From positions 1-18,087 of the forward strand of contig JBHJHA010000055.1 of NCBI GenBank assembly GCA_050331235.1: a stretch of DNA of 18,087 bases, read 5' to 3'. A program made the position numbers and the translations under genes. Below are positions 1-17,668 of this stretch, one piece after another. How positions within the stretch are numbered: the stretch's first letter is position 1; the number at the start of each line of letters is the position of its first letter. Under the pieces are notes generated by a model. That model made no database searches, was not told the DNA's origin, and worked only from the letters and a program-made list of their open reading frames with translations. Source of the DNA: Leptolyngbyaceae cyanobacterium (GTDB taxonomy: Bacteria > Cyanobacteriota > Cyanobacteriia > Phormidesmidales > Phormidesmidaceae).

Positions 1-919
1 CAATCGAAAACATGCCCCGCCGATGCCCTACGACTAGCACCCCAATCACCCCACCTTCAATGGCTTGGGGACTGAATGCCTCGCGGGTGATCAAGGCGAT
101 CGCGCCGGGCAAGGCTGGGAGATTAGCCAAGATGACCCACAGGCCCGTCAAGACATACAGACCCGCCATGGTGGGAACGATCGCCCCCGCCACCGTTCCA
201 ATTCGCTGAATCCCCCCAATCATCACCAAACCCACCAGCAGACTCAAGCCCAAACCATATACCCAAGGGTAGCTATCCATCACTGGCCAAACTCGAGCGA
301 TCGCCGACAGCGTCTGGCTCGCCTGAAACATGTTGCCGCCCCCTAAAGCGCCGACGGCACACAAGAGCGCAAAGATCAGCGCCAAGCCTCGCCCCAACCA
401 CCCCCAACCCAGTTTGTCCAACCCCTGCGATAGGTAATACATGGGGCCGCCAGCCACCGTGCCATCCGCTCGCACGGTGCGATACTGCTGGGCCAGCGTG
501 CATTCCACAAACTTGCTCGACATGCCTAAAAAGCCTGCCAGCGTCATCCAAACAACCGCTCCGGGTCCCCCAAGTTGAATCCCGATCGCAACCCCGGCAA
601 TATTGCCCAGCCCAATCGTGGCAGAAAGGGCCGTAGCGATCGCCTGAAAATGGCTAACCTCACCGGCTTCGTCGGGGGTATCATAGCGACCCAACGTCAC
701 TTGAAGCGCATGGTTAAAGGCGCGGACATTAATGAAGCCCATCCGTAATGTGAAATAGATAGCTCCCATCAGCAGCCACAGAATAATCAATGGCAGCTCA
801 CCAATGCTGAAAAATAGGGTCCTTTCAAGGACATTGATGCTGAAATTGAGTGCTTGATCGAACCCTTCGTTGAGCTGGGTCAGGCGGTGGGCAAAGTCAA
901 CAGAGAACAGTACTAGCAA
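1..919 (-). CDS. Alanine/glycine:cation symporter family protein (AgcS/AlsT), 3' end beyond the left window edge
   Basis: Missing from the ORF track because it has no stop in the window. Manual minus-strand translation from TTG at 919 (preceded by AGGAG) gives ...LPLIILWLLMGAIYFTLRMGFINVRAF...GEVSHFQAIATALSATIGLGNIAGVAIGIQLGGPGAVVWMTLAGFLGMSSKFVECTLAQQYR...AFSPQAIEGGVIGVLVVGHRRGMFS. The ALSATIGLGNIAGVA/GGPGA/E-TLAQ-YR signature is typical of the family. Confidence 0.93.
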   Translation of the reverse strand, partial: MLVLFSVDFAHRLTQLNEGFDQALNFSINVLERTLFFSIGELPLIILWLLMGAIYFTLRMGFINVRAFNHALQVTLGRYDTPDEAGEVSHFQAIATALSATIGLGNIAGVAIGIQLGGPGAVVWMTLAGFLGMSSKFVECTLAQQYRTVRADGTVAGGPMYYLSQGLDKLGWGWLGRGLALIFALLCAVGALGGGNMFQASQTLSAIARVWPVMDSYPWVYGLGLSLLVGLVMIGGIQRIGTVAGAIVPTMAGLYVLTGLWVILANLPALPGAIALITREAFSPQAIEGGVIGVLVVGHRRGMFSI

Positions 920-1143: not shown

Positions 1144-3180
1144 CTAACTCAACTTAGTTCTCTCAGACGCTGCTACCTGCAAAACCTGGATGAGCCAAGC
1201 CGTCATCCGCTCCATCGAGTCCGGCGTATGCCAAGAAACCTCCTCGACTAAGCAGGGATATACCGACATCATCTCGGCCGCATAGGCTGCCTGGGTGGCC
1301 GCCATCGTTAGCGTAATCAAAGGCAACGCGGTCAGTTCGGACGACTGGCTGAGTGACTTTAAATAAAGTTCTGGCGTCTCAATATCGGGGTCTAAAACAG
1401 CCACGTCGGCTTTCCAAACCCGCTGCAAAAGACTAGCTTGTCCAATATCATCTACTTCTAAAACGCGACAGCCAAACTCGTGAAAAATATGAGGAAACCT
1501 TTGATTGGTGGATGAGAGTCGCTCCGGCGATCGCAAATAAAGTAGCGTCAAGCGACTGGGCGCTGGCATCGCTGGCGGTGGCTGTAGCAAAACGCTCCCC
1601 AACCGCCCTGTCGGCCACAGAAGCTCACGGTCTACCGGTAGCTTGCCTAAATAAACCGCTAGGGGGGAAGGCACAATACCGATCAGCAAAGTAGCTGTAT
1701 CGGTTAAGGCGCGCTTGAGTGTCTCAAGCTGCTCGTTTGTTCTCTGAATAGGCAACATCACCAAAACCGCAGACAGCGGCAGATGCCTCGCCACCTCGAT
1801 CGCGCCTTGGATGTGTGGCGTGATTAACAACTGGTAGTTGAGGTCATAGGCCTGCTGCCATAGGTCAGCCAACGACTCCTGATCAAGAGGCGCCACTAGC
1901 AGCAAAAACCGGCTATCACGGGTGGCATTTGGTAACGGGGATACAGGCAGTAGCAAGGTCGGTCGTACGACCGCCGACGGCTGCACTGACATGACTAACT
2001 CACCCTGATGCAGTTGTGCCAGCCTGCGGACCAATACCCATTCCAACCAGTGGCCAGTTTCTGACGGTAGCGGTGAGGCAGGCACCGAATGACTAGAAAA
2101 CGGTAACGAGAAAATCGTTTGAGATAGCTTTTCCAAGGGAAAATCAGTAGGTAAATGAGTTAAAACCAAACCCAGCCAGTTATCCCACTGGTTAATCTCT
2201 AGAAGATCTGAGTAGATAACACTATCCGCATCTGTTTCTGAGGACAAAGCCGTCTGCATGAGACACGTCAATATCTGTAAACACCGACTCCGATCCGCCA
2301 CCAACGTCATTGGCGGTGTTGTCTGCAATATCGGCGGTGGCTGATAAGCCGAGAGAGGCTGCTCAATACCAGTTCTCAACACCGCTTGCTGATATGCCTC
2401 CGACCATACATCCTGCAACTCGATCATCTGGGGAACTAAGCGCAGGGAACCGCTTTCTAGCCGACCTAGGTCGATCAGGGTGTTGACCCAAACTGCCAAC
2501 CGCCGGCAGTGTTGCTGAATTAAGCTTGCGTATCGGCTTTGGCGTGGCGTAAGGTTGCCAACTTCTCCCATTTTGAGCAAGCTTGCCAACCCCAATAGTG
2601 AGGTCAGTGGAGTCTTCAACTCGTGCCCCAGATAAGTCAAGAGGGCAGTATTTTGACGTAAGACTACGCTCGAAGACTCATCTCCGGTTTTGATATTGGC
2701 GAAGTCGAGGTCGGCGGTTTGGCGGTCGGTGACTTTGGGGTGCTTTGCCGAGGACTGCATCGCCGCTGCCAAAAACGACGATTTATCCAAGATGCCCTGA
2801 TATCGATTTTGGTCATCAACAATCACCCAGCAGCGATCTGGATTGGCCACCACCTGGTCCACAGCAGCACCGCTCTCAGTTGTCATCACCATGAGCGCTA
2901 GGGTCTCAGACACTTGGTCCAACAGCGATCGCGAAGAGAGCACCACTAATCCTGGTTGAGTAGTTTCGTGGGTCGCTGCCGATACGGAAACATCAGCCGG
3001 ATCGACGAGATGCAGAATCTGATTTAACGCCATACCGCGTACAGGCATCTGGTCTTTATCCACCAAGACCACATAGTCGACACCATTCAGCAAGCAACCT
3101 TCTAGCCACCGGCTCGGTGACTCCGATATCGGGTAAGCAGGGGCAGAGCGGATGAATTGGGCCAATAACGGCATTGTCAT
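1144..3180 (-). CDS. Hybrid histidine-kinase-like protein: degenerate CBS-like N-terminus, HisKA with phospho-His, degenerate HATPase_c, two receiver-like domains (probable pseudokinase)
   Basis: H-box LGHELKTPLTSLLGL (His codon 2623-2625) followed by LIDLGRLESG. The catalytic-domain scaffold is recognisable (ADRSRCLQIL, LVRRLAQLHQGEL) but N, G1 and G2 boxes are missing. C-terminal receiver-like segments include IQGAIEVARHLPLSAVLV and CRVLEVDDIGQA...ADVAVLDP...LPLITLT. Start is ATG 3180 or TTG 3186. Confidence 0.85.
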   Translation of the reverse strand: MTMPLLAQFIRSAPAYPISESPSRWLEGCLLNGVDYVVLVDKDQMPVRGMALNQILHLVDPADVSVSAATHETTQPGLVVLSSRSLLDQVSETLALMVMTTESGAAVDQVVANPDRCWVIVDDQNRYQGILDKSSFLAAAMQSSAKHPKVTDRQTADLDFANIKTGDESSSVVLRQNTALLTYLGHELKTPLTSLLGLASLLKMGEVGNLTPRQSRYASLIQQHCRRLAVWVNTLIDLGRLESGSLRLVPQMIELQDVWSEAYQQAVLRTGIEQPLSAYQPPPILQTTPPMTLVADRSRCLQILTCLMQTALSSETDADSVIYSDLLEINQWDNWLGLVLTHLPTDFPLEKLSQTIFSLPFSSHSVPASPLPSETGHWLEWVLVRRLAQLHQGELVMSVQPSAVVRPTLLLPVSPLPNATRDSRFLLLVAPLDQESLADLWQQAYDLNYQLLITPHIQGAIEVARHLPLSAVLVMLPIQRTNEQLETLKRALTDTATLLIGIVPSPLAVYLGKLPVDRELLWPTGRLGSVLLQPPPAMPAPSRLTLLYLRSPERLSSTNQRFPHIFHEFGCRVLEVDDIGQASLLQRVWKADVAVLDPDIETPELYLKSLSQSSELTALPLITLTMAATQAAYAAEMMSVYPCLVEEVSWHTPDSMERMTAWLIQVLQVAASERTKLS

Positions 3181-3647
3181 ATCCAAGGTTGCTGGCGTTT
3201 CCAGGCTTATGATGGGCTACCGAAATCAACACGAGAGCTGAGAACTGCGTTGAGTCAATGACCTCTCAACGTTCCGACTGATTCTCCTCCGCCGATGCAC
3301 TACCCAAAGCAGGGAGTCATCCCTCTGCCCAATCACTCAGCTCGAAAACACCCTACACTCTACCGATAAACAAAACACCGCTGCTGCCACGCGCGGGTAG
3401 AGATACAATACGAATGATTGAATAAACCATAAAACCCTTTCTTCGTAGGGGCAAGCAAGTCTACTGTTCCTTTGTAGATTCTCGGTCGGCCATTTGTCGC
3501 GTTCATCTGATCGGCAGCCCTGGGTTCCAGATCGATGTCTGACTTGATTCATTACCCTAGGCAACTCTTTCCTAGCTGAGAACTGTTTTAAGCGATATTC
3601 AAAACTCCCTATTTACATTTATTTTTAGTCTTCGAGAGACACTACCC

Positions 3648-4559
3648 TTGCATTCACGATTTCTAGTCGGAGGCTTTACGCCTGACCATTCGTTGCTCCA
3701 AGACGTAAAGCGAGTTTTGGATAGCGAAACCTATTTAATTTACGCGACCCAACAAGTAGGGTCATTTTTGCAATGGATAGAGCGCAATCAACACCGCATT
3801 GACTGTCTCCTCCTCCAGTATTCTGACGAACTGCAAGATCTGATCAATCAGCTCAAGACCCAAAAGATTATCTTGCCGATGTTGCTAATCGACATGGACC
3901 CTGCTGCCAATGAGGAGAACGTAGGCGTTGATATCTCGAATACTCCATCCAGCTGTCAGACCCTAGCGGGTAGCTATCATCAGGAAGTTATCTGCGTCAT
4001 GCAGTCTGAAACTGCACAACTCGACAATTTTATCCAGCAGGCGATCACCCGTTTTTTAGGATTGCAATGCGACCTTAGCCAGACGCTGCCGGCCCAATCT
4101 GAAGCGAAGGAAGATGAGCACCAGATTCACTTGAGCCTTCAGCAGCAGAGACTAGCGGATAAGCTGAGAGAGCGTTTAGGCTACTTGGGCATCTACTATA
4201 AGCGCGATCCCCAACAGTTCGCCCGTCACCTAGAGCCCGCCCAGCGAGAGGAGCTACTTGCGGACTTGAAAAGAAACTATCGTTTCTTGATCCTCAATTA
4301 CTTTAAAGACAGTAGCAGCGTTAACAACGCAATTGACAACTTAGTCAATATGGCTTTTTTTGCAGACATTTCCGTATCAAAAATTGTTGAAATTCATATG
4401 GACTTGATGGATACCTTTGCGAAACAACTTAAGTTAGAAGGCCGCAGCGAAGAGATTCTACTAGACTATCGCTTAACACTTATTGATGTGATTGCGCATC
4501 TATGCGAGATGTATCGCAGATCCATTCCTCGAGAACGACCAGAAAGCAACTCCAAGTAG
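3648..4559 (+). CDS. kaiA: Circadian clock protein KaiA (N-terminal pseudo-receiver plus C-terminal KaiC-binding domain)
   Basis: Highly characteristic C-terminus: QQQRLADKLRERLGYLGIYYKRDP...AFFADISVSKIVEIHMDLMDTFAKQLKLEGRSEEILLDYRLTLIDVIAHLCEMYRRSIPRE. N-terminal IDCLLL pseudo-receiver. 303 aa with a TTG start. Confidence 0.97.
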   Translation: MHSRFLVGGFTPDHSLLQDVKRVLDSETYLIYATQQVGSFLQWIERNQHRIDCLLLQYSDELQDLINQLKTQKIILPMLLIDMDPAANEENVGVDISNTPSSCQTLAGSYHQEVICVMQSETAQLDNFIQQAITRFLGLQCDLSQTLPAQSEAKEDEHQIHLSLQQQRLADKLRERLGYLGIYYKRDPQQFARHLEPAQREELLADLKRNYRFLILNYFKDSSSVNNAIDNLVNMAFFADISVSKIVEIHMDLMDTFAKQLKLEGRSEEILLDYRLTLIDVIAHLCEMYRRSIPRERPESNSK

Positions 4560-4597
4560 TGATTAATACATCGGTGTTGGGCAAACTGCGTACACAG

Positions 4598-4635
4598 TGA
4601 TTTGCTGTTTCGTATTTGCACGAAACAGCAAATCA
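4598..4635. repeat. Perfect 16-bp inverted repeat (stem-loop) between kaiA and the first membrane-protein gene; possible terminator or processing site
   Basis: TGATTTGCTGTTTCGT (4598-4613), loop ATTTGC, ACGAAACAGCAAATCA (4620-4635). Extends imperfectly to 4583-4653 (AAACTGC/GCAGTTT, TAC/GTA, CAG/CTG). No following U-tract. Confidence 0.85.
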
Positions 4636-4658
4636 AAGCGCTGGTAGCAGTTTCGACC

Positions 4659-5882
4659 ATGATACGATTCTCCCTGAGACACTCACAGCAAAAAGCAATT
4701 TTTGCATTTAGTGTTACGCTGACATACCTGTTAGTCATTTTCTATCTTAATTTTCTACAGGGTCCTTCCTGGCGAGACGAAGCCGAATTCTGGTCCTCTA
4801 GTCTCGTCTTTAGCAATCAGCTCATTCCAAGTTTGACTGATCTCAAGACTTATGGCAGCTTAAATACCCCCCTCCCGTTTATTATTTTTGGCTTTTTAGA
4901 ATATCTGTTTGGAGGCGATATTGTTGTCGGCCGTTTACTCAATCTCCTCCTATCGCTCGGTATTATCGCCGCAATTGGTTGGCCTTCAAGCCAGAAAAGA
5001 GGGCGTGCCCTTTTGTGTATGTTTGGGCTATTTTGTTGCCCTTACTACCTTTGGTTGAGTGGGCGACTCTACACCGAGATGATTGCCTGTGTCTGGGTTG
5101 TGATTGGCTTAGCTACATATCTCCGAAACCGTCACTTGCTCGCTAGTGCCGCTTTTGTATTAGCGATCGCCTCTCGCCAATTTATGGTGATATTCCCCGC
5201 TGCGATCGCCACCTATGAATTTCTTTCAGTGAGTCAGGCCTATTGGCAAACCCGGAGAACCAATTGGCAAATCCAGGTACGTTGGTTACTCCCCCTCGCC
5301 GCCTCACTATCGCTATTGGCGTGGTTTACATTATTTCAAGGGATGGCTCCGGCCTCCGCTACAGTTGAGAAGGCTCCTGAAGTGCAAAAGTCGCTGGAGG
5401 CTTCTCATCTAGGAATTGCTGTCAATCATCTATTTTTTGTTGGCAGTTACATCGTTGTGCCAGAGTTAATTTTATTTCCCTCCCAAGCCCCCTTAAAGGC
5501 ATTGAAGGAAAATTGGCAAAAATGGTTAATCATTGCCGTTGCACTATTAATTTTCTGCCTCCTTTTTCCACCGCCAACGAAAGGCCAGGGTATTGTCAAC
5601 GACTTCCGCAGGCTCTTACCCAATGACGCCCTACAGTTAGGCCTAATTTACCTCATGGCGCTGTTTGCCTGTATACGATTTACTAAGCCTGACCTTATGT
5701 TTTGGATCGTAGCCTTTCACGTGATTGTGATGACAAAATCACTTCCCTGGGAACGCTATATCCTTCCCTTAGCTGTTGCTTTTTGGTATCTCAAATCGGT
5801 GTTTCCTAATCTGGTACGACCATCGCTGTTGAGTCAGGCTCACAAAGCAAAGTTCGCGCAGCATCCCATGAAGATCAACTAG
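4659..5882 (+). CDS. Polytopic membrane protein, putative GT-C-fold glycosyltransferase (ALG10/ArnT/PMT-like), paralog 1
   Basis: About 10-11 hydrophobic helices. Acidic DE pair in the first external loop (GPSWRDEAEFW), NTPLPF, RLYTEM, ASRQ and a C-terminal WERYILP. ATG 4659 is preferred over TTG 4602 because it aligns with the paralog's start (MIRFSLRHSQQKAIF vs MVNISINRSQQKALF) and 4602 lies inside the hairpin. Confidence 0.75.
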   Translation: MIRFSLRHSQQKAIFAFSVTLTYLLVIFYLNFLQGPSWRDEAEFWSSSLVFSNQLIPSLTDLKTYGSLNTPLPFIIFGFLEYLFGGDIVVGRLLNLLLSLGIIAAIGWPSSQKRGRALLCMFGLFCCPYYLWLSGRLYTEMIACVWVVIGLATYLRNRHLLASAAFVLAIASRQFMVIFPAAIATYEFLSVSQAYWQTRRTNWQIQVRWLLPLAASLSLLAWFTLFQGMAPASATVEKAPEVQKSLEASHLGIAVNHLFFVGSYIVVPELILFPSQAPLKALKENWQKWLIIAVALLIFCLLFPPPTKGQGIVNDFRRLLPNDALQLGLIYLMALFACIRFTKPDLMFWIVAFHVIVMTKSLPWERYILPLAVAFWYLKSVFPNLVRPSLLSQAHKAKFAQHPMKIN

Positions 5883-6330: not shown

Positions 6331-7599
6331 ATGGTCAATATTTCAATAAACCGTTCCCAACAAAAAGCGCTTTTCCTTTTTTGTGTGACATTAATCTACC
6401 TTTTAGTCGTCACCTATTTGGATTTTTTGAGGGGTCCTTTTTGGTGGGATGAAGGTCCATTTTGGAACTCTAGTCTGACATTTAGCGATCGCCTGATCCC
6501 GACCCTAGAGGATTTAAGGTCATACAACAGCCTCAATACCCCGCTTCCATTTATCATCTTTGGCTTTCTGGAATATCTGTTTGGATCAGGGCGCGGCATC
6601 ATTGCAGGTCGGTTTCTCAACCTGTTCCTATCTATCGGCATGGTCTTCTTGATTGGCTGGCCCAATAAGGAAAGAGGAGGACGGGCCTTGCTATGCCTCG
6701 TTGGCTTATTGATGTGTCCTTATTTTCTCTGGCTGAGTGGTCGATTGTATACCGAGATGGTCGCCTGCACTTGGGTGTTGTTGGGGGTCATTGCCTACTT
6801 GCGTAATCGACCATTGCTCAGCGGATTGATGTTCATTTTGGCCATCGCCTCCCGCCAGTATATGTTGGCGTTTCCAGCGGCGATCGCGACCTATGAATTT
6901 TTACGGGCTAGTCACGACTTTTGGGAAACTCGGGTATTTAACCCACGGCGTCAGTTGAGGTGGTTGGCCCCGGCAATTGCGTCTTTATCGATCTTTGCCT
7001 GGTTTGCCCTTTTTCAAGGCCTAGCTCCAGCGTCTGCCACCGTTGACATGGCTCCGGAGGTCCAAAAAACACTGTGGGCCCTCGAACTCGGCGGAGCCGT
7101 AAACTTCCTGGCATTTATTGGGACTTACATCGTTACTCCTGAGTTCATCTTGTTTCCGCCCAAGACCCCTGTCGCCACCTTTAAACGAGAATGGAAGAAG
7201 TGGCTCATCATTGCATTACTGCTGCTGGTGTTTTGCATTGTCTCGCCCCCTCCGGTGACTGGCAATGGCAATATTGTTAAGCTTGCCAAGCTTCTGCCAG
7301 CACCGATTTTACAGATGGGGCTATATTACGGGCTAGCGCTGTTAGCCTGTATTCGATTTGCTAAACCTGATCTCATGTTTTGGATTGTGGCATTCCACGC
7401 AGCTATGATGACCAAAGCACTGCCATGGGATCGCTACGTGCTGCCATTGGTGATTGTTTTCTGGTATCTGAAATCCTATTTTTCAGATTTAGTCATTCCT
7501 CAGTTTAGCGATCGCTCCAGTACCGGTGCGGAGCATCCCCAGCAGCGGGCCTTAGAGTGTCAGGCTTCTCCTTTGACTTCATCGCTATCGCAAGATTAA
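6331..7599 (+). CDS. Polytopic membrane protein, putative GT-C-fold glycosyltransferase (ALG10/ArnT/PMT-like), paralog 2
   Basis: Colinear paralog of 4659-5882 with identical blocks SLNTPLPFIIFGFLEYLFG, WLSGRLYTEM, LAIASRQ and KPDLMFWIVAFH. Motifs GPFWWDEGPFW and WDRYVLP. Confidence 0.75.
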   Translation: MVNISINRSQQKALFLFCVTLIYLLVVTYLDFLRGPFWWDEGPFWNSSLTFSDRLIPTLEDLRSYNSLNTPLPFIIFGFLEYLFGSGRGIIAGRFLNLFLSIGMVFLIGWPNKERGGRALLCLVGLLMCPYFLWLSGRLYTEMVACTWVLLGVIAYLRNRPLLSGLMFILAIASRQYMLAFPAAIATYEFLRASHDFWETRVFNPRRQLRWLAPAIASLSIFAWFALFQGLAPASATVDMAPEVQKTLWALELGGAVNFLAFIGTYIVTPEFILFPPKTPVATFKREWKKWLIIALLLLVFCIVSPPPVTGNGNIVKLAKLLPAPILQMGLYYGLALLACIRFAKPDLMFWIVAFHAAMMTKALPWDRYVLPLVIVFWYLKSYFSDLVIPQFSDRSSTGAEHPQQRALECQASPLTSSLSQD

Positions 7600-7627: not shown

Positions 7628-8806
7628 TCAACGCCCTAAGGGAATATGAATGCAAACGGATGTACCTTGACTGGCCTCATTCTGCAGACACATCGGCCAA
7701 CCCATGCGTTCGGCTAATCGGCGACTATTGGCTAAACTCAACCCGACGTTAGCAGCAATAGCCGCCGCCGGAGTCGAGAAAGCCGCCTGTAAATCTGCTG
7801 GAGACATCTCTACATCTGGGTCCTCGATTCTGATGACCAGAGAGTCGCCGTCAGTACCGATCTCTAGGTTGATGCAGCCGTCCTGGGCCGAGTGTTGCAC
7901 CAGATAGATCAAGATATTGGAGACCAAGCTCGATAGAAGACATCTGTCTGTAAAAAGTAGAACGTCACCAACTTCAGGAATCGTCAAAAAGTTAATTTGA
8001 CGACCGTAGGATAAGCGAATTTCTTGGGCCAGGAGAGTACAGATTTCTTGAATGTCGCAGGCTTCAACCAGGGGAACAATTTGGCCATTTTCTAGCGCAT
8101 CCAAGGCGATCGCATCGTCAACCAAACGAGCTAAATGGCTGACAGCTGTTTGAATGCGGCAATGATGCTTTTGTCGCGCCTCATCGCTGAGCTTGGGGGC
8201 ATACATGTCCAAAATCCCCGCTGAGGAAGAAATAATCCCCAGCGGAGTTCGAATCTCATGGCTAATTTGAGTAATCAATTGAGATTTAAACTGCTGTAGC
8301 CGCTGCTCAGCCTCCAGGGCTAGCCGCATTTCCAGCAAGTTAACAATTTGACGACTCAAGGCCCCGAGCGCCTCCTGTTGCTCTTGAGTGAGCGTTCGGG
8401 GCTGATAGTCGATAATACACAGAGTCCCGATCGCCATTCCTTTAGGCGTCACTAGAGAGCAGCCCGCATAAAATCGGATATTAGGCTCCCCCGTAACCAA
8501 AGGATTCTCGCAAAACCGAGGATCTTGTAGCGCATCAGGAACCACCAGGATCGCCTCTGGATGCTGAATGGTATGGTGACAAAAGGCAACTTCGCGGCTG
8601 GTCTCGCAAATATCCAGGCCTGCTTTTGCCTTAAACCACTGTCGGTCACGATCAACCAAGGAAATGAGCGCGATCGGCACCTGACACATCTGAGCTGCTA
8701 GCTTGACTAGATCGTCATAGGCTTGCTCCGGGGGCGTATCGAGGATTTGATAACGATGCAAATCATGTAAGCGCCAGCTTTCATTGTGGAGTGGGAACAT
8801 TGCCAA
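7628..8806 (-). CDS. GAF-domain sensor histidine-kinase-like protein with degenerate ATP-binding domain
   Basis: N-terminal non-photosensory GAF (YQILDTPPEQAYDDL, ALISLVDRDRQWFK, AFCHHTI, DPRFCENPLV, IRFYAG, IGTLCIID). H-box SHEIRTPL (His codon 8258-8260). N box reads NILIYLVQHS, G1 reads IEDPDVEM, G2 reads NVGLSL. Start is TTG 8806 or ATG 8800. Confidence 0.88.
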   Translation of the reverse strand: MAMFPLHNESWRLHDLHRYQILDTPPEQAYDDLVKLAAQMCQVPIALISLVDRDRQWFKAKAGLDICETSREVAFCHHTIQHPEAILVVPDALQDPRFCENPLVTGEPNIRFYAGCSLVTPKGMAIGTLCIIDYQPRTLTQEQQEALGALSRQIVNLLEMRLALEAEQRLQQFKSQLITQISHEIRTPLGIISSSAGILDMYAPKLSDEARQKHHCRIQTAVSHLARLVDDAIALDALENGQIVPLVEACDIQEICTLLAQEIRLSYGRQINFLTIPEVGDVLLFTDRCLLSSLVSNILIYLVQHSAQDGCINLEIGTDGDSLVIRIEDPDVEMSPADLQAAFSTPAAAIAANVGLSLANSRRLAERMGWPMCLQNEASQGTSVCIHIPLGR

Positions 8807-8948
8807 AATCTAGAGAGACCGAAGGTGTTGCTACGCCCAGATTTCCGTCGAGGAAACGCAGCCAAAACAATTGCTGTTGAGTATCGTGCAGGTGCCCAGC
8901 GCTGCCCTAGACTTCCAGTCATCAACCGTAGCAAAACCGTAACTACGA

Positions 8949-10709
8949 CTAGACACTTGAACCTTGCCGCTGCAAGGAGTTGACAAAGGCGGTCGCAGCG
9001 ACGGCGGTCAGTGGTTTGGCAAAAATAAATCCTTGCACCACATCACAACCTAACGACTTGAGATAGGCCAGTTCTTCGCCAGTTTCTGCCCCTTCAGCGA
9101 CGACGTTTAAATTGAGATCATGACTCATGTTCATCACAGCCGCTACGATTTTTTGGTTGGTGTAGCGCTGGTGAATATTTTGCACAAACATCCGATCAAC
9201 TTTAATGGTGTTACAAGGAAATGTGCTCAAGTATTCTAACCCGGCATAGCCCGTACCAAAATCATCGATCGCAATTCGCACGCCCATCTTCTTCAGTTCT
9301 CTTAAGGTCTGAATGGTTCTTCTTTCATTCTGGATCAAGGCTTTTTCAGTAATTTCGAGGCAAAGCAGATGGGGGGATACATGGGTCTTTTGCAAAATTA
9401 CCCGTACGGTGTCGCTGAGTCCTGCTTGAGCTAGCTGCACGGGGGAAAGATTCACCGAAACTCGAATGGGATTTTGAAATTGCTCCTGCCATTGCTTAGC
9501 TTGGCTACAGGCTGTAAATAACACCCAGTTGCCAATTTGATTGATTAGTCCGTTTTCTTCTGCGACCGGAATAAACTTATTAGGAGAAACCCAACCGAGC
9601 TGCTCACTATGCCACCGGACCAAAGCCTCAACGCCAACAACCTGATCTTGGGATAGCTCTAGCTGTGGTTGATAGTACACTTCAAACTCACCTTGCTGCA
9701 GCGCATAGTGGAGCGCATTGGCAATGTCTAATCGCTCAAAGACATTAAGTGACATTTCCGGGCTATAGCAGCGGTAGTGGTTGCCACCTTCTTGCTGCAC
9801 CTTATAAAGGGCGATTTTGGCGTCTTGTAAGATGCTGGACGGAGCAGTGAGTTGCCCGGTTGTTGTCTGGGAAGCGATCGCCGTCGAAGCAATGCCGATG
9901 CTAAACGTCACGTTAACTGTGTGCCCGCTAATCACATAAGGGGCCCGCAGAAAGTTAATCACTCTTTCCGCCGTCTGAGCGACAGGAGCATTTTCAAGAC
10001 TATCTTGGTCAGTCAAAATCACAAATTGGCTATGGCTGGTCCGAAAAATTCTTCTCAGATCAGCGATCGTTTTTGCCTGAGGAAAAATATTTTGGATGCG
10101 TTGAGCCACTAGCTTGATTAAGCTATCACAGTCATCAGTGGCTAAAGTGCTACTCAGAAAGCTGAACTGATCAATTGAAATCACGAACAAAGCAAGTGGA
10201 CTCTCCGCTTTGGTAACTTGCGCTAAAGCTTGGTTAAGAGATAGTTGATTCGGCAATTGAGTAAGCATATCGATCTGGCTCAACTCATCAATTGCGTGTT
10301 CTAGCTGATCGATTTTCTGTTGATAGATCTGAGTAACCGACTGTTTCTTTTTGAGTTGCGCACGCACCGCTGAGACTAAGTCTGAAGGCGAGAAAGGCTT
10401 GGTTAAGTAGTCATTAGACCCCAGAGTCATCCCTTGACGAAAGTCATGTTGAGTCGATTTAGCCGTCAAAAAAATGAATGGCACCTCAGCTAAGGTTGGG
10501 TCTCCGCCTAAAGCCTCAAGGACCTCGTAGCCATTAAGTCTGGGCATATTCACATCACAGACAATCAAATCTGGAGTGTGCTCTTTAGCCAGGTCTAAGC
10601 CTTGCTGACCATGGAGGGCCATGAGCGTCTCAAAGCCCTCCAGCTCAAGTATGTCGTTGATATTCTCCCGGGCTGATTCGTTGTCTTCAATGATGAGAAT
10701 CTTAGTCAT
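8949..10709 (-). CDS. Response regulator with degenerate GGDEF and intact EAL domain (c-di-GMP phosphodiesterase)
   Basis: REC (ILIIED, PDLIVCDVNMP, FIFLTA, DYLTKPF). GGDEF-like domain (DMLTQLPN, SIDQF, FSIGIA) with the active site replaced by RTSHSQF. EAL domain retains YQP, EALVRW, SVNLS, LEITE, DDFGTGY, IKVD, AEGAET and QGF. Start is ATG 10709 or GTG 10715. Confidence 0.94.
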   Translation of the reverse strand: MTKILIIEDNESARENINDILELEGFETLMALHGQQGLDLAKEHTPDLIVCDVNMPRLNGYEVLEALGGDPTLAEVPFIFLTAKSTQHDFRQGMTLGSNDYLTKPFSPSDLVSAVRAQLKKKQSVTQIYQQKIDQLEHAIDELSQIDMLTQLPNQLSLNQALAQVTKAESPLALFVISIDQFSFLSSTLATDDCDSLIKLVAQRIQNIFPQAKTIADLRRIFRTSHSQFVILTDQDSLENAPVAQTAERVINFLRAPYVISGHTVNVTFSIGIASTAIASQTTTGQLTAPSSILQDAKIALYKVQQEGGNHYRCYSPEMSLNVFERLDIANALHYALQQGEFEVYYQPQLELSQDQVVGVEALVRWHSEQLGWVSPNKFIPVAEENGLINQIGNWVLFTACSQAKQWQEQFQNPIRVSVNLSPVQLAQAGLSDTVRVILQKTHVSPHLLCLEITEKALIQNERRTIQTLRELKKMGVRIAIDDFGTGYAGLEYLSTFPCNTIKVDRMFVQNIHQRYTNQKIVAAVMNMSHDLNLNVVAEGAETGEELAYLKSLGCDVVQGFIFAKPLTAVAATAFVNSLQRQGSSV

Positions 10710-11115
10710 GATCACCTGCTCTTTACAGTCCTGTTGCGTGGGGGGGTAGGCAGTTGCCCAGGCTCAAGCTAAGAGCTCTAGACTATCAACGAAGGGGCCA
10801 AGACTGACTTAGAATACATACCTACAAGAAAATTGTGACCTATCGACCCTTACCAGCAATCCGCAAATGCGGCTAAAGCAGTTCATCGTGTCTTCTCTGA
10901 CGCCACTAGCTTGCAGCCATCAGTTTTGTGCGTATATTTACCGAAAGAACCATTCTTGACAGCCAAGGGCACTCGGTTCTCAGTGGGCAAAATCCAAGCC
11001 ATTCTCTTCGGAACGCTCGCTGGACAAAGAAAATACTGGCTTTAAGCACCTAAAGGCTCACCTCAAATCTACGTAAGTATTTTCCTGAGGCTTACTGAGA
11101 GTAGTGAGGCAACTA

Positions 11116-11190
11116 CCCAGTCGGTTGAGACACTCACTCCGCTCTGCCTGACAATGTGGCTGTCTACATTTGCCCCAGTCGGTTAAGACA
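11116..11190. repeat. Pair of 17-bp direct repeats CCCAGTCGGTT(G/A)AGACA
   Basis: Copies at 11116-11132 and 11174-11190, 16/17 identical, 58-bp period, in the intergenic region upstream of the EAL gene. Confidence 0.7.
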
Positions 11191-11287
11191 GCGCGTGACT
11201 CCCTCAATAGACCCCGTTTCCAAAACCTCCGTAGCGGTACGGTACTTGAGGCCGCTTCTCTGTCTAGCACCACCGCAGCCACTAGGC

Positions 11288-12001
11288 TTAGGTCGATGAG
11301 GCACCGTTGTCCTGGAGCAGGTTAAACTTACGCAACACCTGCAGATTGTCTGAGGTGACCATTTCTTGTACATTTGCCACATCCTTCAGGAGGCGCATTT
11401 CGCGGGCGTACTCTTGTTTGAGAATGGTTAAATAGCGGGCTCGCTCGGCATCTGTGCTAGCTTTTCCCAACATGTGCAACGCCAGATTGACATTGCCAAG
11501 GGGTTCGCGTAGGTTCTGGGAGAGTTTAGTTAATAGCGTTTCCTTGATGGTGGCTAGCTCAGAATTTTCTTGAAGCTGTTTCTCAAGACTTTGGGTGCGT
11601 TTAGTTTCATCGTGGTAAGCCCCCATCAGCCTCGCGTGACGGTCTAACCGCACCTTGATAGCTCTGAGCACTTCATTGGGCCGAAAGGGTTTGGTCAAAT
11701 AGTCGTCGGCTCCTGATTCCATGCCTTCTCGTTGATCTAATCGGTCAGCTTTGGCCGTCAGAAAAATGAACGGCGTGTTTTGGGTCTCTGGTTTATCTCT
11801 AAGGACGCTCACCACTTCATAACCATCGATCTCTGGCATCATAACGTCACATAAAACGAGGGCCGGCTGGTGCTTTAGAGCTGCTTCTATGCCTTCGCGA
11901 CCATTGGTCGCAGTGATAACGACAAAATCCTCTAGGGTGAGGATGTCTTCCAGATTGTCGAGGACTGAAGGATCGTCTTCAATAATGAGGATTTTAGTCA
12001 T
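11288..12001 (-). CDS. Response regulator: receiver domain plus coiled coil plus His-less HisKA-like (pseudo-DHp) tail, no catalytic or DNA-binding domain
   Basis: REC MTKILIIEDD...PALVLCDVMMP...FIFLTA...GADDYLTKPF with phospho-Asp, Thr and Lys intact. The tail LSQNLREPLGNVNLALHML mimics an H-box (SHELRTPL) with Q at the His position, and the protein ends soon after. The true start is most likely ATG 12001 rather than 12154. Confidence 0.9.
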   Translation of the reverse strand: MTKILIIEDDPSVLDNLEDILTLEDFVVITATNGREGIEAALKHQPALVLCDVMMPEIDGYEVVSVLRDKPETQNTPFIFLTAKADRLDQREGMESGADDYLTKPFRPNEVLRAIKVRLDRHARLMGAYHDETKRTQSLEKQLQENSELATIKETLLTKLSQNLREPLGNVNLALHMLGKASTDAERARYLTILKQEYAREMRLLKDVANVQEMVTSDNLQVLRKFNLLQDNGASST

Positions 12002-12163
12002 GGTTGAAAATAAGCACCAATTAGGCGCATAAAGGCTGTAATTACATTTCCCGGGAATCGAGGGGGGATGGCCGTTTTTGACAAAATTTGATGCTGTTGC
12101 TGTTAGCAGACTGGGTTGATGTCTGGCTGAGGCTTTATTGGCAGCTTGCTTCACGATTGATTT

Positions 12164-15100
12164 TCAGATTCTTTTGGGGGCGGAGTCTTCTGGCACGTAG
12201 AGCGCAGGCGGGAGATTGAGGGGAAAGCGTAGTGTAAACGTCGTTCCAAAGTTGACTTCGCTTTGGCAGATAATTTTGCCCTGGTGCAATTCGACCAGCT
12301 TTTTGACAATGGAAAGCCCTAATCCGGTCCCTGGGATGTTGCCAACGTTTTGCGCGCGATGAAAAGATTGAAACAGATGCTTGAGGTCATCTTCGGGAAT
12401 GCCGATGCCCTGATCTTGAATCAGGATATCGAAGCTTTGGGGGTGGGTGGTTAGCAGTAAGTAAACTTCGCTTTCGGGACGCGAGTATTTCAAAGCGTTG
12501 GAAAGGAGATTAGTCAAAATTTGCCGCAATAGGCGCTGATCGACCATGACTGGGTAAGCGGGAACGGCATCTACCCGGATATTGATGCGATCGCTGCCGG
12601 TACTGAGGTTGAGTTCTTCCACAATATCCTGACAAAAGTCAAGGATGCGGGTGGATACATACTTCAGCTGCATCTTACCGGCCTCGGCTCGGCTCAGGAT
12701 CAGCATATCTTCTAGCAGTTGGGTCATGTGATTGACCGAGTCTTGGATGCGCATGAAGTGTTTTTGCTGCTTGGCTGAACCGATGCGATCGCCATAGTCT
12801 TGGAGGATGCCCGCCGAAGAAGCAATCACCCCCAGTGGGGTACGAAACTCATGGGAGGTTGTCGAGACAAAACGCGACTTCAGCTCATTGAGCTCTCGCT
12901 CGGCTGCCAGTGCCCTGCGAATTTCGACTTCAGCAGCTTTGCGATCGCTGATATCTTGACAGACGCAGACCAATCCAACACCGGCAATTTGCGTGAGGGA
13001 TACTTCTTGCGGAAATTCGGAGCCATCCTGCCGCACGGCGATCGCTTCCCCTCGCCAATGACCCTGGGCAACCAGATGCGGCAGGATTTTCTGCTCAAAT
13101 CGGGCTACCTCAGCAGCGGTGTAGAGGTTACACCAAGTTTTGCCCAGCAACTCTGAAGCCGGCATATCAAACAGTTGGCAATAGGCCGTGTTTACGAAAA
13201 CATAGCCGCCTTGGTCGTTTAAAATCGCGATGCCGTCACTGGCCGCTTCGATGGCGGCCAACTGTTGTTTCATCGCCTGTTCGGCCTGTTTCCGCTCCGT
13301 CACATTACGAAAGATGCCTCGAGTTGCCACGGGTACACCTTGCTCAATGCGGACGTTGATGTTGCCCTCGAGCTGAACCAAATCACCCGCTTTAGTGCGC
13401 AACACAATTTCAATGCGATCGAGGGAGGTACATTTGCCCTGCTGGATCGCGGCAAAGAGCTGTTGACAATGGGGCAAATTCTCAGCGGCCAGCACATCAA
13501 AGATGGTAAGCGTCTCAAGCTCGGAGAAGGTATATCCCAAGGTTTCTAGCCACGCTTGATTTACAAAGATAAATCGACCATCGGCCATGGAGACGCTCTG
13601 AATCAGGTCGCTGGCGTTATCAAAAAAGTCTTGCAAAACCGCTTTACTCTCCTGTAAAGCCACCTCGGCTTGCTTGCGGTCATTGATATCACGGCGAACG
13701 CAAATGAGGTCCCCCATACTACTCAAGGTTAGGGACAGCTCTTCGTAGAAGGTGCTGCCATCTTTGCGGGTGGCGATCGCCTCGCCTTGCCAATGGCCCT
13801 GGGCTTCTAAAGCCGGAAAGATCTCGGTTTGAAACCGCTTATTTTCAGCCGTAGAGTACAGCTTTGCCCAAGGCTGATCGAGTAACTCGTCGGCAGTTTC
13901 ATAGCCAAACAGCTGGGCATAGGCCTGGTTGAGATAGCAGTGTCGGCAGTCCCGGAGAATGGCCATTCCCTCAATCGCAGTTTCCATCGCTAGGAGTTGA
14001 CGGTGGATCTGCTCGTCGGCCCGCTTGCGATCGGTAATATCCAAAATGACAGCCAAAAAAAGGCGCTCGTCTCCCAGCTCAATCAGTTGAAGATGAATAT
14101 CAGCGGCATATTGAGTCCCGTCAGCCCGTTGATGGATCGCTTCAAAATTAACCTTATCCGTTTTGCACTGTCGTAAAGGCGCGATCATCGCTTCAAAATC
14201 TGCAGTTGTCATCTGAGGTTTGATGTCGACTGGCGTCATCGCCTGCAGTTGCGGCAGGGTATAACCCAGATTATTGAGCGCACCTTGGTTGACGTAGCTA
14301 AAGCGCAGGGTTTCAGGATCAAAAATAAAGATCTCGTTGAGACTGGCCTCAAGCATCCTCAGCAGGCGTGTCCGCTCCGCCTCTGCCCGTTTCCACTCGC
14401 GAATGTCTTCAATCTGGCCAACTAAATACAGCGGCTGCCCATCCAAGTCTTTTACCACGCTGATGTGGGCGATTGCGTCAACTGCGGTGCCGTCCTTGTG
14501 GGCATAACGGTTTTCCAGCGTCACTGCCCCAGTTTTGCTCGTCAAGAGCTGATCGAAAGCGTGGCGACTGGCGGCTCGGTCATCCGGATCGGTTAGCCCG
14601 AGGAAAGTTTGTTCCATGACTTCCTCAGACGTATAGCCCAGCATTTTGTGAAATGCCGCATTGACCATCAAGAATCGGCCTGCTAAATCAGCCGTCACGA
14701 TACCAATGGGGGCGTTGTCAAAGGTTAGCCGCAGGAGATCTTCACTGCGCCGCAGTTGCTCTTGGCTGTGCAGCAGCGCTACATTGCTTTCTAAAAGCGC
14801 CACATTGCTATCAGATAGCTCCTGGGTCCGAGCGGCAACCCGCAGTTCCAGTTGTTCATTAAGCTGCTCAAGGGCAGCCATGGTTTGCAGACGTTCAATT
14901 TCGGCAGCAGCCCGAGCTGCAAAGACTTTGAGGATTTTCTCGACCTGGGATAGGTTTGCGATCGCCTGGGTATCCAAAACGCAAAGAGTGCCAATCGGTC
15001 GGCCGGCGGTATCCAACAGCGCTAGGCCAACGTAGCTCTCCGCCGCAAAAGGCGTCAGACGCTCATCGGGAAATTGGGTTCTCAACCCTTGAACACAGGC

Positions 15101-17668
15101 GTAGGTGTGCTGCTGTAGCGTCAGCTCACAGGGCAGCCCAGGCGTCTCATAGCAAAAACTTGGCCGTAGCTCACCTCGGGAGTAACTGGCTAGCGTCTGC
15201 AGTCGATCGCCCTCGTAAATCGTGACCATAGCGTGGCATACATCCAAAGCAGTCGCGAGATACGTCACTAACGCGTCAAAGAAATGTTCGCCAATCACCG
15301 CTGCCGTTCCCTCGACCACATTATGCAAAGCCGTCTCAGCTTGTCTGTGGGCCAGTTCGGAACGTTTGCGCTGGCTAATATCGCGCACAATCAGTAGTGC
15401 CTCGTCAACTCCAGAAATGGCAATTCGGGCTTCCTGGTAAAAAACCTGGCCGTCGATTTCAAATTCATATTCATAGGTTTGGGGCTGACCGGTCGTGAAC
15501 GCACCCTCGATCTGTCGCCGGTACTCCTGGGCAATATTGGGAGGCAGAACGTCGAAAATTGACCAACTATCGGGCCGCTCGAAGAGCGATATCGGGTTAT
15601 CGTCTCGGGCGGGTAAGCAGTCGAGGTAGGTACCATCACGCTGCAGCCGGATTATGAGATCGGGAATTGCCTCTAGCAAAGCCCGATTAGTCGCTTCGCT
15701 CTGCCGCAATGCCGTCTCTGCTTGGCGCGCTTCGGTCACGTCAATGCCGGTGCCAATCATGTACTCCACCTGACCTTGGGCGTCCAGCAGGGTGGAATTG
15801 GTCCAGGCAATGAGGCGACGATCGCCAGCTTTGGTTAGCCAGTGGTTTTCCGAAACGTCGGGAAAGTCAGCTTGGGGATGGGTCAGCACTGCCTGAATGT
15901 GCTGGCGCACGCGATCGCCTTCTTCAGGGGGAATCAAAAAGTCCCACACAGGGCGTCCTTGGGCTTCTGCGGCGGTGTAACCGGTAAGTCGCTGACAAGT
16001 TTGGTTAAATTGCACAATACATCCATCCGCATCGGACACGACCACCAACGCCCCCGCCGCGTTAACAATGGCGTTGGCAAAGTTACGCTCCTGCTGCAGC
16101 TTTAACTCAGCTTGCTGCCGTTCTTGAATCTCAATTTGCGCCTGCTCATACAGCTGCCCCTGTTGAATCGCGATCGCCAGCTGAGCACTCAAATGATCGA
16201 TCAAGCTTAAGTCGAGTTGTTGCCAAGGCCTGGGAGCGACACAGTGATGCAGGACTAGCAGCCCCCAGAGTTGCCCCTTAGTTACAATCGGTGAAATCAG
16301 ATAGCCTTTGACCTGTAGCGACTCCAAAAACTCGATGTGACAGTCTTGCAAGTTGGCCTGATAAATATTGTCCACGTGGCGCTGGCAACCGTCTAAGTAA
16401 TCGGCTTCTAACCATCGGGGAAAACACACATCTTCGTAGTAGCTGCCCAGGGTAACTTGGAAATTGGGATTGACTGCTTCGGCAATGACCTGACCCCGTA
16501 GATCAGCTCCAAATCGATAGACTAATACGCGATCGCATCGGAGAAACGCCCTTACCTGCTGTACGGCAGCGGTCAATATCGTTAAAAAATCAAACGATTG
16601 ACTCACCTGACGCGAAAACGTGGCTAAAAATTGCTCTCGCTCTGCTCGTTTCTGCAGTTCAGCGATCCGCTCGGCGGCTTGTTGCTCCAGGGTCAAGTTA
16701 CGCCCCAACAGCAAAGCCAATTTCTCATTTTCGAGCGCTTGAATGCGTTGCTGCAGCAAATCCAGGGTGTCATATAGATCAGCCGTATTAAATAGCTGCA
16801 ACATGCTGGTTTGGGTTACAAGCCCAGCTAGAGCCCCCTGAGCATCAGTGATCACCAGCCGCCGAATGCGCTTGGCCTGCATAAGCTGATGGGCAGCCCA
16901 GAGTGTGTCCCCAGGTTGTAGACATTGCAGCGGCGTACTCATCACGTCTGCAGCTGATACCTTTGCCAGGTCCAGTTCTAGAGACTGGAGCTGGACAATG
17001 TCACGCTCCGTCATAATCCCCAATGGTCGAGTCTGACCTGGCCTAGCAACTGCCACTATCACCACACAACTGACCGGCTGTTCAGCCATTTGCTGAGCCA
17101 CGCGCAAGACCGAAGTCGTGCTCTCAGCCTGAACAACTTCGGTCTCCATCACTTCTTCGATCTGACGCAACCTCAAGAGATCCATCAGCTTGAGGAGCTG
17201 CCGCAGACTATGGGGCGTCACGACCCCCAACAGTTGTCCCTGCTGGTCAACAACGGGCAAATGGCGAATGCGTTGCTGCTGCATAAACTGCAGCGTGCCC
17301 AAGACATCACTGAGCTGATCGACCGTTTTAGTCATGACCGTCTTAGTCATGACCTCAGCCACGGTCAAGTCGCGGGGAGATCGGCCCTGAGCTGCCAGTC
17401 GAACCACATCGCGCTCAGTACAGATGCCAACGACTTGTCCCTCGACAGCAACGATCGCGCAGCTAGCTGATATGGCCTGGGGTTGGGTCGTCGCAGCCTC
17501 TGCTGAGACCAGACAGGTATTAAGTGGAGTCTGGCTCATGGCAGCGATCACCGCCATCAGGGGCGTATCTGGGGCTACCACCAAGGGATTGGGAATGATG
17601 GCTTCAGTGACTGCACTCCCAGCAAGCGAGATATCCAATTTGGGAGATGAACTTACCATAGACAACAT
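12164..17668 (-). CDS. Multi-sensor histidine kinase: 4 CBS - DXCF cyanobacteriochrome GAF - 2 PAS - GAF - 5 PAS - HisKA - HATPase_c
   Basis: CBS repeats (GICTERDVV, IRHLPVVD, GIMTERDIV, IRRLVITD). CBCR GAF (CDRVLVYRF, EDVCF, DCHIEFL, LWGLLVLHHC, PRPW). Seven PAS/PAC units ending in D(I/V)(T/S)-type motifs. H-box SHEFRTPL with intact N box (NLLSNALKYS), G1 (DQGIGI), F (LFQSF) and G2 (GTGLGL). Start is ATG 17668 or 17659. Confidence 0.95.
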   Translation of the reverse strand: MLSMVSSSPKLDISLAGSAVTEAIIPNPLVVAPDTPLMAVIAAMSQTPLNTCLVSAEAATTQPQAISASCAIVAVEGQVVGICTERDVVRLAAQGRSPRDLTVAEVMTKTVMTKTVDQLSDVLGTLQFMQQQRIRHLPVVDQQGQLLGVVTPHSLRQLLKLMDLLRLRQIEEVMETEVVQAESTTSVLRVAQQMAEQPVSCVVIVAVARPGQTRPLGIMTERDIVQLQSLELDLAKVSAADVMSTPLQCLQPGDTLWAAHQLMQAKRIRRLVITDAQGALAGLVTQTSMLQLFNTADLYDTLDLLQQRIQALENEKLALLLGRNLTLEQQAAERIAELQKRAEREQFLATFSRQVSQSFDFLTILTAAVQQVRAFLRCDRVLVYRFGADLRGQVIAEAVNPNFQVTLGSYYEDVCFPRWLEADYLDGCQRHVDNIYQANLQDCHIEFLESLQVKGYLISPIVTKGQLWGLLVLHHCVAPRPWQQLDLSLIDHLSAQLAIAIQQGQLYEQAQIEIQERQQAELKLQQERNFANAIVNAAGALVVVSDADGCIVQFNQTCQRLTGYTAAEAQGRPVWDFLIPPEEGDRVRQHIQAVLTHPQADFPDVSENHWLTKAGDRRLIAWTNSTLLDAQGQVEYMIGTGIDVTEARQAETALRQSEATNRALLEAIPDLIIRLQRDGTYLDCLPARDDNPISLFERPDSWSIFDVLPPNIAQEYRRQIEGAFTTGQPQTYEYEFEIDGQVFYQEARIAISGVDEALLIVRDISQRKRSELAHRQAETALHNVVEGTAAVIGEHFFDALVTYLATALDVCHAMVTIYEGDRLQTLASYSRGELRPSFCYETPGLPCELTLQQHTYACVQGLRTQFPDERLTPFAAESYVGLALLDTAGRPIGTLCVLDTQAIANLSQVEKILKVFAARAAAEIERLQTMAALEQLNEQLELRVAARTQELSDSNVALLESNVALLHSQEQLRRSEDLLRLTFDNAPIGIVTADLAGRFLMVNAAFHKMLGYTSEEVMEQTFLGLTDPDDRAASRHAFDQLLTSKTGAVTLENRYAHKDGTAVDAIAHISVVKDLDGQPLYLVGQIEDIREWKRAEAERTRLLRMLEASLNEIFIFDPETLRFSYVNQGALNNLGYTLPQLQAMTPVDIKPQMTTADFEAMIAPLRQCKTDKVNFEAIHQRADGTQYAADIHLQLIELGDERLFLAVILDITDRKRADEQIHRQLLAMETAIEGMAILRDCRHCYLNQAYAQLFGYETADELLDQPWAKLYSTAENKRFQTEIFPALEAQGHWQGEAIATRKDGSTFYEELSLTLSSMGDLICVRRDINDRKQAEVALQESKAVLQDFFDNASDLIQSVSMADGRFIFVNQAWLETLGYTFSELETLTIFDVLAAENLPHCQQLFAAIQQGKCTSLDRIEIVLRTKAGDLVQLEGNINVRIEQGVPVATRGIFRNVTERKQAEQAMKQQLAAIEAASDGIAILNDQGGYVFVNTAYCQLFDMPASELLGKTWCNLYTAAEVARFEQKILPHLVAQGHWRGEAIAVRQDGSEFPQEVSLTQIAGVGLVCVCQDISDRKAAEVEIRRALAAERELNELKSRFVSTTSHEFRTPLGVIASSAGILQDYGDRIGSAKQQKHFMRIQDSVNHMTQLLEDMLILSRAEAGKMQLKYVSTRILDFCQDIVEELNLSTGSDRINIRVDAVPAYPVMVDQRLLRQILTNLLSNALKYSRPESEVYLLLTTHPQSFDILIQDQGIGIPEDDLKHLFQSFHRAQNVGNIPGTGLGLSIVKKLVELHQGKIICQSEVNFGTTFTLRFPLNLPPALYVPEDSAPKRI

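Follow-up and report, generated by a model that had tools for sequence, protein, structure and literature searches.

Natural separation of kaiA from kaiBC in a Leptolyngbyaceae cyanobacterium, a rare and recurrent gene-order variant of a most likely functional clock

What does it mean when an intact kaiA gene is found without kaiB and kaiC next to it? In cyanobacteria, kaiABC is regarded as a nearly universal gene cluster, and the question is raised by contig JBHJHA010000055.1 (C55) of a Leptolyngbyaceae cyanobacterium (assembly GCA_050331235.1, termed G000; 4.8 Mb, 118 contigs, completeness 95.5%, contamination 0.05%), which was analysed as one window that comprises the whole contig of 18,087 bp. 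As an initial annotation had pointed out, kaiA is intact in this window and is followed within 100 bp by an unrelated membrane protein gene, and neither kaiB nor kaiC is present; hidden Markov model (HMM) searches place both of them on another contig, C69. The annotation had left open whether the clock cluster has been split in this lineage or whether the gene is an extra copy that might be independently regulated or serve a different partner. On the basis of sequence comparisons, we consider it most likely that the locus represents a real, rare and recurrent gene-order variant of a well-known clock, and that this variant is near-neutral and functional.

The kaiA gene begins with a TTG codon and encodes a full-length protein of 303 aa, in which a Pfam scan recognized KaiA_N (PF21714, residues 7-139, E 2.8e-24) and the KaiA C-terminal domain (PF07688, residues 175-296, E 3.8e-62), both over the cut-off, and which in a PDB search matched solved KaiA along its entire length (E 2e-61). 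Residues 260-294 are near-invariant in 14 orthologues and align without gaps to solved KaiA. The C-terminal helices of KaiA we take to form the dimer interface and to bind KaiC, with the roles of single residues assumed likewise. The nonsynonymous divergence (pN) of kaiA is far below the saturated synonymous divergence (pS), and in the protein tree KaiA is nested among the genus orthologues (support 100/98). By its length, its domains, its C-terminal helices and its orthology, the protein is to be classified as a canonical double-domain KaiA (KaiA1). A KaiA3 identity was considered and rejected, as the protein carries KaiA_N instead of the NarL-type receiver of KaiA3, for which no Response_reg match was obtained in KaiA at E values up to 0.001, and as the kaiB3/kaiC3 system was not found in the genome searches.

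The partner genes lie together on C69, where genome-wide HMM searches detected a canonical kaiB and the sole kaiC adjacent to each other in mid-contig position (8847-10856), and the assembled 9 kb upstream of kaiB are devoid of kaiA. The arrangement with kaiA directly upstream of kaiBC thus does not exist in this genome, and the suggestion that the cluster has been split in this lineage holds, with a single kaiA on C55 and a single kaiBC pair on C69. KaiC has 517 aa from an ATG at 10400, reaches 1023 bits against TIGR02655, and can be aligned to solved KaiC across the S-T phosphorylation motif up to the end of the C-terminal tail; besides this match above the cut-off, the KaiC search returned one weak unrelated match. 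The canonical oscillator gene set is complete (KaiB1, KaiC1 with motif and tail, SasA and RpaA), and RpaB and LdpA are also encoded. KaiB-domain matches were obtained in three proteins, namely the canonical KaiB, the SasA-type kinase, and a protein of 280 aa, encoded on C106 (L003:1486-2328), that ends in a KaiB-like domain; long KaiB-domain ORFs resembling this last one also occur in G006, G009, G120 and G222. If kaiA in the window were an extra or KaiA3-like copy with a different partner, the copy of the cluster would have to be absent from the assembly. A completeness of 95.5% does leave room for one missed gene, but the DNA upstream of kaiB is assembled, kaiA has one match across the genome and groups with the genus orthologues, it occupies the ancestral position beside a kinase gene that is described below, it matches KaiA_N and not Response_reg, and the genome contains a single canonical KaiC with complete tail and no detectable kaiB3 or kaiC3 that could point to another partner. 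We therefore regard this possibility as next to negligible.

Is the separation a property of the organism or of its assembly? An artefact of assembly or binning, with kaiA and kaiBC being adjacent in the organism or stemming from two organisms, could be suspected from the 118-contig assembly, whose kaiA junction is spanned by one run only. This run, X1, which is labelled as a stromatolite metagenome and is possibly the DNA source, contains in its Logan contigs the kaiA region in one piece of 17,972 bp and the kaiBC region in one piece of 17,478 bp, both at a depth of 10.8, without differences and without a joint at the kai boundaries. Although this is a second assembly and not independent data, it argues against the misassembly at the 3' junction of kaiA that the annotation had named as a possible refutation; contig pieces of X2 and X3 end short of bridging that junction and are uninformative. 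Both kai junctions are single-copy DNA, at which no mobile-element scar or repeat was found. A HIP1-type octamer upstream of kaiB carries no weight, because such octamers occur once per 740 bp genome-wide. Contamination is low, and the kaiA tree and the kaiC tree place the genome in the same subclade. Moreover, in the relative G001, kaiA and kaiC are 338 kb apart within one 1.7-Mb contig, and in the relative G010 they are located mid-contig on two contigs. The split thus looks real, with the comparative support being stronger than the X1 reassembly, and an artefact appears very improbable.

How unusual is such a layout? We surveyed 173 genomes of the family, of which 163 contain kaiA, and a class-wide even sample of 151 cyanobacterial genomes with kaiA in 134, including 121 from outside the family. 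We use A/BC for kaiA apart from kaiBC and AB/C for kaiAB together with kaiC moved; layouts were counted by position comparison, with inspection of all doubtful cases except G105, and "compact" mostly means that kaiC starts at most 2 kb downstream, with kaiB checked for in part of these cases. That kaiA normally lies directly upstream of kaiBC is borne out by the class sample, in which 124 of 134 genomes have the kaiC start on the same strand and no more than 2 kb downstream. Within the family, 145 of the 163 genomes are compact, four have an intact kaiAB with kaiC severed by contig ends, eight are AB/C (all in one clade of the genus g31), and three are A/BC, namely G000, G001 and G010; in one (G135) kaiBC was not found, and two remained unclassed (G115, due to a contig break, and G105). 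Apparent splits in G022, G149 and G201 were rejected as contig breaks. Outside the family, 116 of 121 are compact, which backs the near-universality of the cluster; three are AB/C (one of them in a contaminated bin), one shows a contig break, one has a CRISPR-like array in the kaiA-kaiB spacer, and a relocation of kaiA from kaiBC was seen in none of the 121 sampled. A search for related loci yielded four distant ones (41-49% identity), all with kaiA, kaiB and kaiC in this order. The A/BC layout is therefore rare and, G135 aside, seen in this genus only.

The survey brought up some further kai loci that deserve mention in their own right. The AB/C clade of g31 is well supported (G112, G108, G114, G091, G109, G107, G100, G120; L061-L070, L077), and in four of its genomes, including the single-contig G112, kaiC lies beyond the kinase gene and is convergent with it; this breakage of the normally dicistronic kaiBC is arguably more surprising than the A/BC split. 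In G112, kaiB (L061:7485-7783) is in two frames covering residues 1-78 and 79-100, possibly by a sequencing indel. Apparent AB/C splits in the family f10 concern G236, G222 and G280 (L117-L120, L129-L130), and the last of these genomes is a contaminated bin that holds a second, compact kaiABC. The 99%-complete genome G135 has a full-length kaiA (G135:C21:23247, L127) without kaiB or kaiC in the 5.4 kb downstream and, with the queries used, without a kaiB or kaiC match genome-wide, so that the assembly may have a gap here, or kaiA may be an orphan. In G030 (L045:8700-12800), a kaiA-kaiB spacer of 4.1 kb contains a CRISPR-like array with 46 repeat copies at a period of ~73 bp as well as a 53-bp tandem repeat.

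Did the three A/BC genomes inherit one common split? The species tree was based on 21 ribosomal-operon proteins, which replaced rpoB as this gene is broken at a contig end in G000. In this tree, G000 is separated from the split pair of G001 and G010 by the intact genomes G013, G007, G011 and G008; under the approximately unbiased (AU) test, trees that unite the three split genomes in one clade are rejected (p=9e-8), and parsimony on a 35-genome tree requires three changes, two A/BC and one AB/C. It is thus likely that A/BC arose by two independent events in this genus. The new neighbours of the kai genes also differ between the events, with kaiBC of G001 and G010 being next to a lysozyme-like gene. 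A simple insertion or inversion was rejected for G000, as the genes that flank its kaiBC lie far apart in G001 and G011, and none of the genes next to kai in the relatives has its counterpart at the G000 junctions. The side that stayed in place is easier to recognize: the window has a kinase gene divergently upstream of kaiA, and 35 of the 44 loci whose upstream DNA reaches far enough, representing several families, have a homologue of it at this position (two genera are over-represented in this sample, the profile was trained on 15 of its loci, the row of G236 was dropped, and two records share one label), and this gene has been kept beside kaiA in all three A/BC genomes and in all 11 split genomes of the family examined. 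The retention in all A/BC genomes indicates that kaiA is at its ancestral site.

Why would the cluster break in this genus, of all places? The earliest-branching member has a kaiA-kaiB spacer of 86 bp, and the spacers of the other eight intact members measure 296-526 bp; in 44 other genomes of the family the median is ~68 bp, with at least 290 bp in 2 of the 44. Both A/BC events fall inside the long-spacer clade. At the kaiBC promoter, RpaA occupies positions -58 to -36, with TAAA-N7-TTAA as its binding site (PMC12916501; here and below, statements on the literature refer to those portions of the cited papers that were available), and the 86-bp spacer of the S. elongatus-like G029 has this motif starting 5 bp past the kaiA stop codon. 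In such compact clusters, the RpaA site of kaiBC would be placed against the kaiA stop codon and would leave almost no room for a harmless break. The long-spacer clade, in contrast, would have a breakable gap in front of a promoter-like block ~115-300 bp past the stop. Indeed, G007, G008 and G011 share a conserved block ~115-170 bp past the kaiA stop that includes an extended -10-like site, and the same promoter-like block is found upstream of kaiB in the split genomes G001 and G010, where 0-1 of 300 shuffles reach its score. As it precedes kaiB there just as in the intact relatives, the block has travelled with kaiBC.

We therefore favour, at a probability of roughly three in four, a near-neutral break where two transcription units adjoin, in an organism with a working clock. 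Ordinary genome rearrangement within an enlarged spacer would have parted kaiA and kaiBC, and KaiA, KaiB and KaiC would still assemble in trans into a normal KaiABC clock. In S. elongatus, kaiA is transcribed from a promoter of its own, separately from a dicistronic kaiBC operon (PMC3597532), and rhythms return when kaiBC is expressed from a neutral site (PMC7205874), so that a separation is tolerable in principle. The independent regulation that the annotation had considered is hence not new, since the kaiA promoter and the kaiBC operon are already separate there. As kaiA and kaiBC are predicted to have promoters of their own, the clock likely still works, and the split may well be near-neutral. 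Gene order changes readily in this genus. A control with co-directional gene pairs at 250-600 bp gaps in G011 and G001 (800 kb) showed that 26 of 35 are still adjacent in G000, compared with 60 of 65 pairs that are less than 100 bp apart. Scaled to the tree, ~1.0 break would be expected in the long-spacer clade and two are seen (P(2 or more)=0.27); at the rate of the tight pairs, P for two breaks would be 0.03. The two breaks hence fit background shuffling, and selection for the split does not need to be invoked.

Several observations weigh against this interpretation. Long spacers have been left unsplit elsewhere (363-1227 bp in the family f22, 980 and 4103 bp in f7, 454 bp in G019), the association of long spacers with splits rests on a single clade, spacer lengths derive from alignment-based starts and can be off by some tens of bp (127 versus 4 bp in G113), and the background estimate comes from 35 pairs with a single rate for all. 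In G000 itself, the promoter-like block before kaiB is undetectable, as 79-107 of 300 shuffles, and in a profile search 45 of 500, score as well. Finally, with G004 as outgroup, KaiA of G000 shows an excess of lineage-specific changes in 5 of 5 comparisons with intact relatives (chi2 4.4-13.8), and for KaiC chi2 exceeds 3.84 in 3 of 4 comparisons.

Could the split then have been kept because kaiBC gained a new control, for example by a shared promoter or read-through from the gene in front of it, with an altered feedback loop or KaiA:KaiC ratio? The gene before kaiB on C69, 370 bp away, codes for a glutathione transferase (GST) and points in the same direction, and the stretch between the two yielded no terminator-like site, with counts of the terminator scan at shuffle level, so that about as many sites are expected by chance as were found. 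Neither the relatives' block with its extended -10 site nor, within 600 bp, an exact or one-mismatch TAAA-N7-TTAA was found upstream of kaiB in G000; the latter is also absent in most intact members of the genus. The split, moreover, arose twice in one genus and was seen in none of the 121 genomes outside the family. However, the ancestral block is still there in G001 and G010, and their neighbours are different ones, which means that there is no convergence on one partner, and the number of breaks matches background shuffling. The block is weakly detectable even in the intact G013 (2-50 of 300 shuffles), so that sequence divergence may explain why it is missing in the more distant G000. Regulatory rewiring as the reason for the split is thus unlikely. 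Distinctly unlikely, and stated here as a bold proposal, is the extended idea that linkage is held mainly by promoter crowding, with the RpaA site close up to the kaiA stop, that an open spacer lets the cluster break at background rate, and that kaiBC of G000 lost its ancestral promoter in the move and has come under a captured promoter or under GST read-through, which would be a natural rewiring of the feedback loop.

The excess of changes could also be understood as early decay of the clock, in which relaxed selection let the cluster disintegrate and lets KaiA drift toward a damped or hourglass KaiBC timer. The long terminal branch of KaiA of G000 and its unique substitutions relative to outgroup G004 would agree with this, but the excess of changes in KaiA and KaiC is gone when G005 serves as outgroup, and the neighbouring kinase also evolved 1.3-1.4 times faster in G000. 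Moreover, kaiA, kaiB and kaiC are all intact, the KaiA C-terminus is near-invariant, pN remains far below pS, and the input and output clock genes have been kept. Decay is thus quite improbable, and a near-neutral break with a working clock remains our preferred explanation.

The features around kaiA are compiled in Table 1. In the divergent kinase gene, Pfam recognizes HisKA only, and a literature search aimed at this kaiA-divergent kinase returned nothing; it is a candidate clock-linked gene. A scan for sigma-70 consensus sites found none in the region between this gene and kaiA, with overall scan counts at shuffle level. The hairpin begins 39 bp past the kaiA stop and has no U-tract; the RNA fold of 4557-4662 has z=-5.2, with 0 of 200 shuffles being equally stable. 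The hairpin is one of 25 perfect hairpins with a stem of at least 15 bp in the 4.8 Mb and has no second genomic copy. The likeliest start of the following membrane protein gene is an ATG 99 bp after the kaiA stop, which aligns with residue 1 of its tandem paralogue. The sole family match of the pair is weak and far under the cut-off (NF046093, a cell-surface glycopolymer family), and the first protein is possibly a GT-C-type glycosyltransferase, unrelated to the clock. Its homologues, multi-pass and unannotated, occur in 22 of 60 family genomes, and on these grounds a genomic island, which the G+C content of 0.43-0.47 at 4-7 kb (genome 0.526) might suggest, was rejected; the closest ones, in G007 and G013, are away from kai and next to another gene. 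Beyond the pair, a minus-strand signalling block (7628-17668) encodes, according to Pfam, a GAF histidine kinase, a receiver-GGDEF-EAL protein and a receiver protein, together with a 1834-aa kinase-like protein with apparent CBS, GAF and PAS repeats as judged by eye. At the other end (1-919, minus strand), a sodium:alanine symporter gene runs past the contig end.

Table 1. Features at the kaiA locus of the window
Feature	Position	Strand	Basis
HisKA histidine-kinase gene, start codon uncertain	1144..3186	-	Pfam HisKA; divergent from kaiA
Intergenic region, expected site of the kaiA promoter (inferred)	3187..3647	.	461 bp, from ORF positions; single-copy DNA
kaiA, predicted canonical two-domain KaiA	3648..4559	+	Pfam KaiA_N and KaiA, PDB match, single genomic match, grouping with genus orthologues
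Hairpin, candidate terminator or RNA-processing stem	4598..4635	+	Perfect 16-bp stem, 6-nt loop
Membrane protein, first of tandem pair, where kaiB would be	4659..5882	+	61% identical to 6331-7599
Second membrane-protein paralogue	6331..7599	+	ORF list; 61% identity to the first

How does this locus compare with known systems? As in S. elongatus PCC 7942 (KaiA PDB 1r8j, 4g86, 5c5e; KaiC 1u9i), there is a two-domain KaiA of ~300 aa, a 104-aa KaiB and a 517-aa KaiC with conserved motifs, accompanied by SasA, RpaA, RpaB and LdpA, and kaiB and kaiC are still together like the dicistronic unit of that organism (PMC3597532). The difference is that kaiA is not upstream of kaiB, before which the RpaA motif was not found. 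Unlinked Kai genes are likewise known from the KaiA3-KaiB3-KaiC3 system, with kaiA3B3 unlinked from kaiC3 in Synechocystis PCC 6803 and Microcystis NIES-843 (PMC11372060), but that system is paralogous and is broken at the kaiB-kaiC joint. Engineered S. elongatus, too, recovered its rhythm when kaiBC had been moved away from kaiA to a neutral site (PMC7205874, PMC12916501), by means of inducible Ptrc constructs and not, as in G000, by natural rearrangement. A paper that calls the kai operon syntenic does not mention a split in the part covered (PMC8113500), and a fragmented Microcoleus kai locus has been ascribed to assembly (PMC10812107). In the literature searched, which also took in parts of PMC5520375, PMC13468521 and PMC12000584 and had most subscription papers, supplements and figures outside its scope, no report of a naturally split canonical kaiA/kaiBC was found; the synteny figure of PMC11372060 and Table S1 of PMC8113500, likewise outside this scope, could bear on novelty. 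The reservation of the annotation that such a split may be common and already described in this clade was thus justified as to its recurrence in relatives, which lowers the novelty, while a paper describing it did not come to light.

The Kai proteins of this organism are ordinary, and what is gained is evolutionary and regulatory insight rather than a new mechanism. When an assembly shows kaiA or kaiC on its own, neither loss of the clock nor a paralogue should be concluded from this. The natural breaks between kaiA and kaiB in this genus, and those between kaiB and kaiC in other clades, provide ready tests of why the linkage persists, and such lineages can show whether the stoichiometry and feedback of the Kai system depend on co-location, or whether the genes lie together as a side effect of regulatory sequences that overlap.

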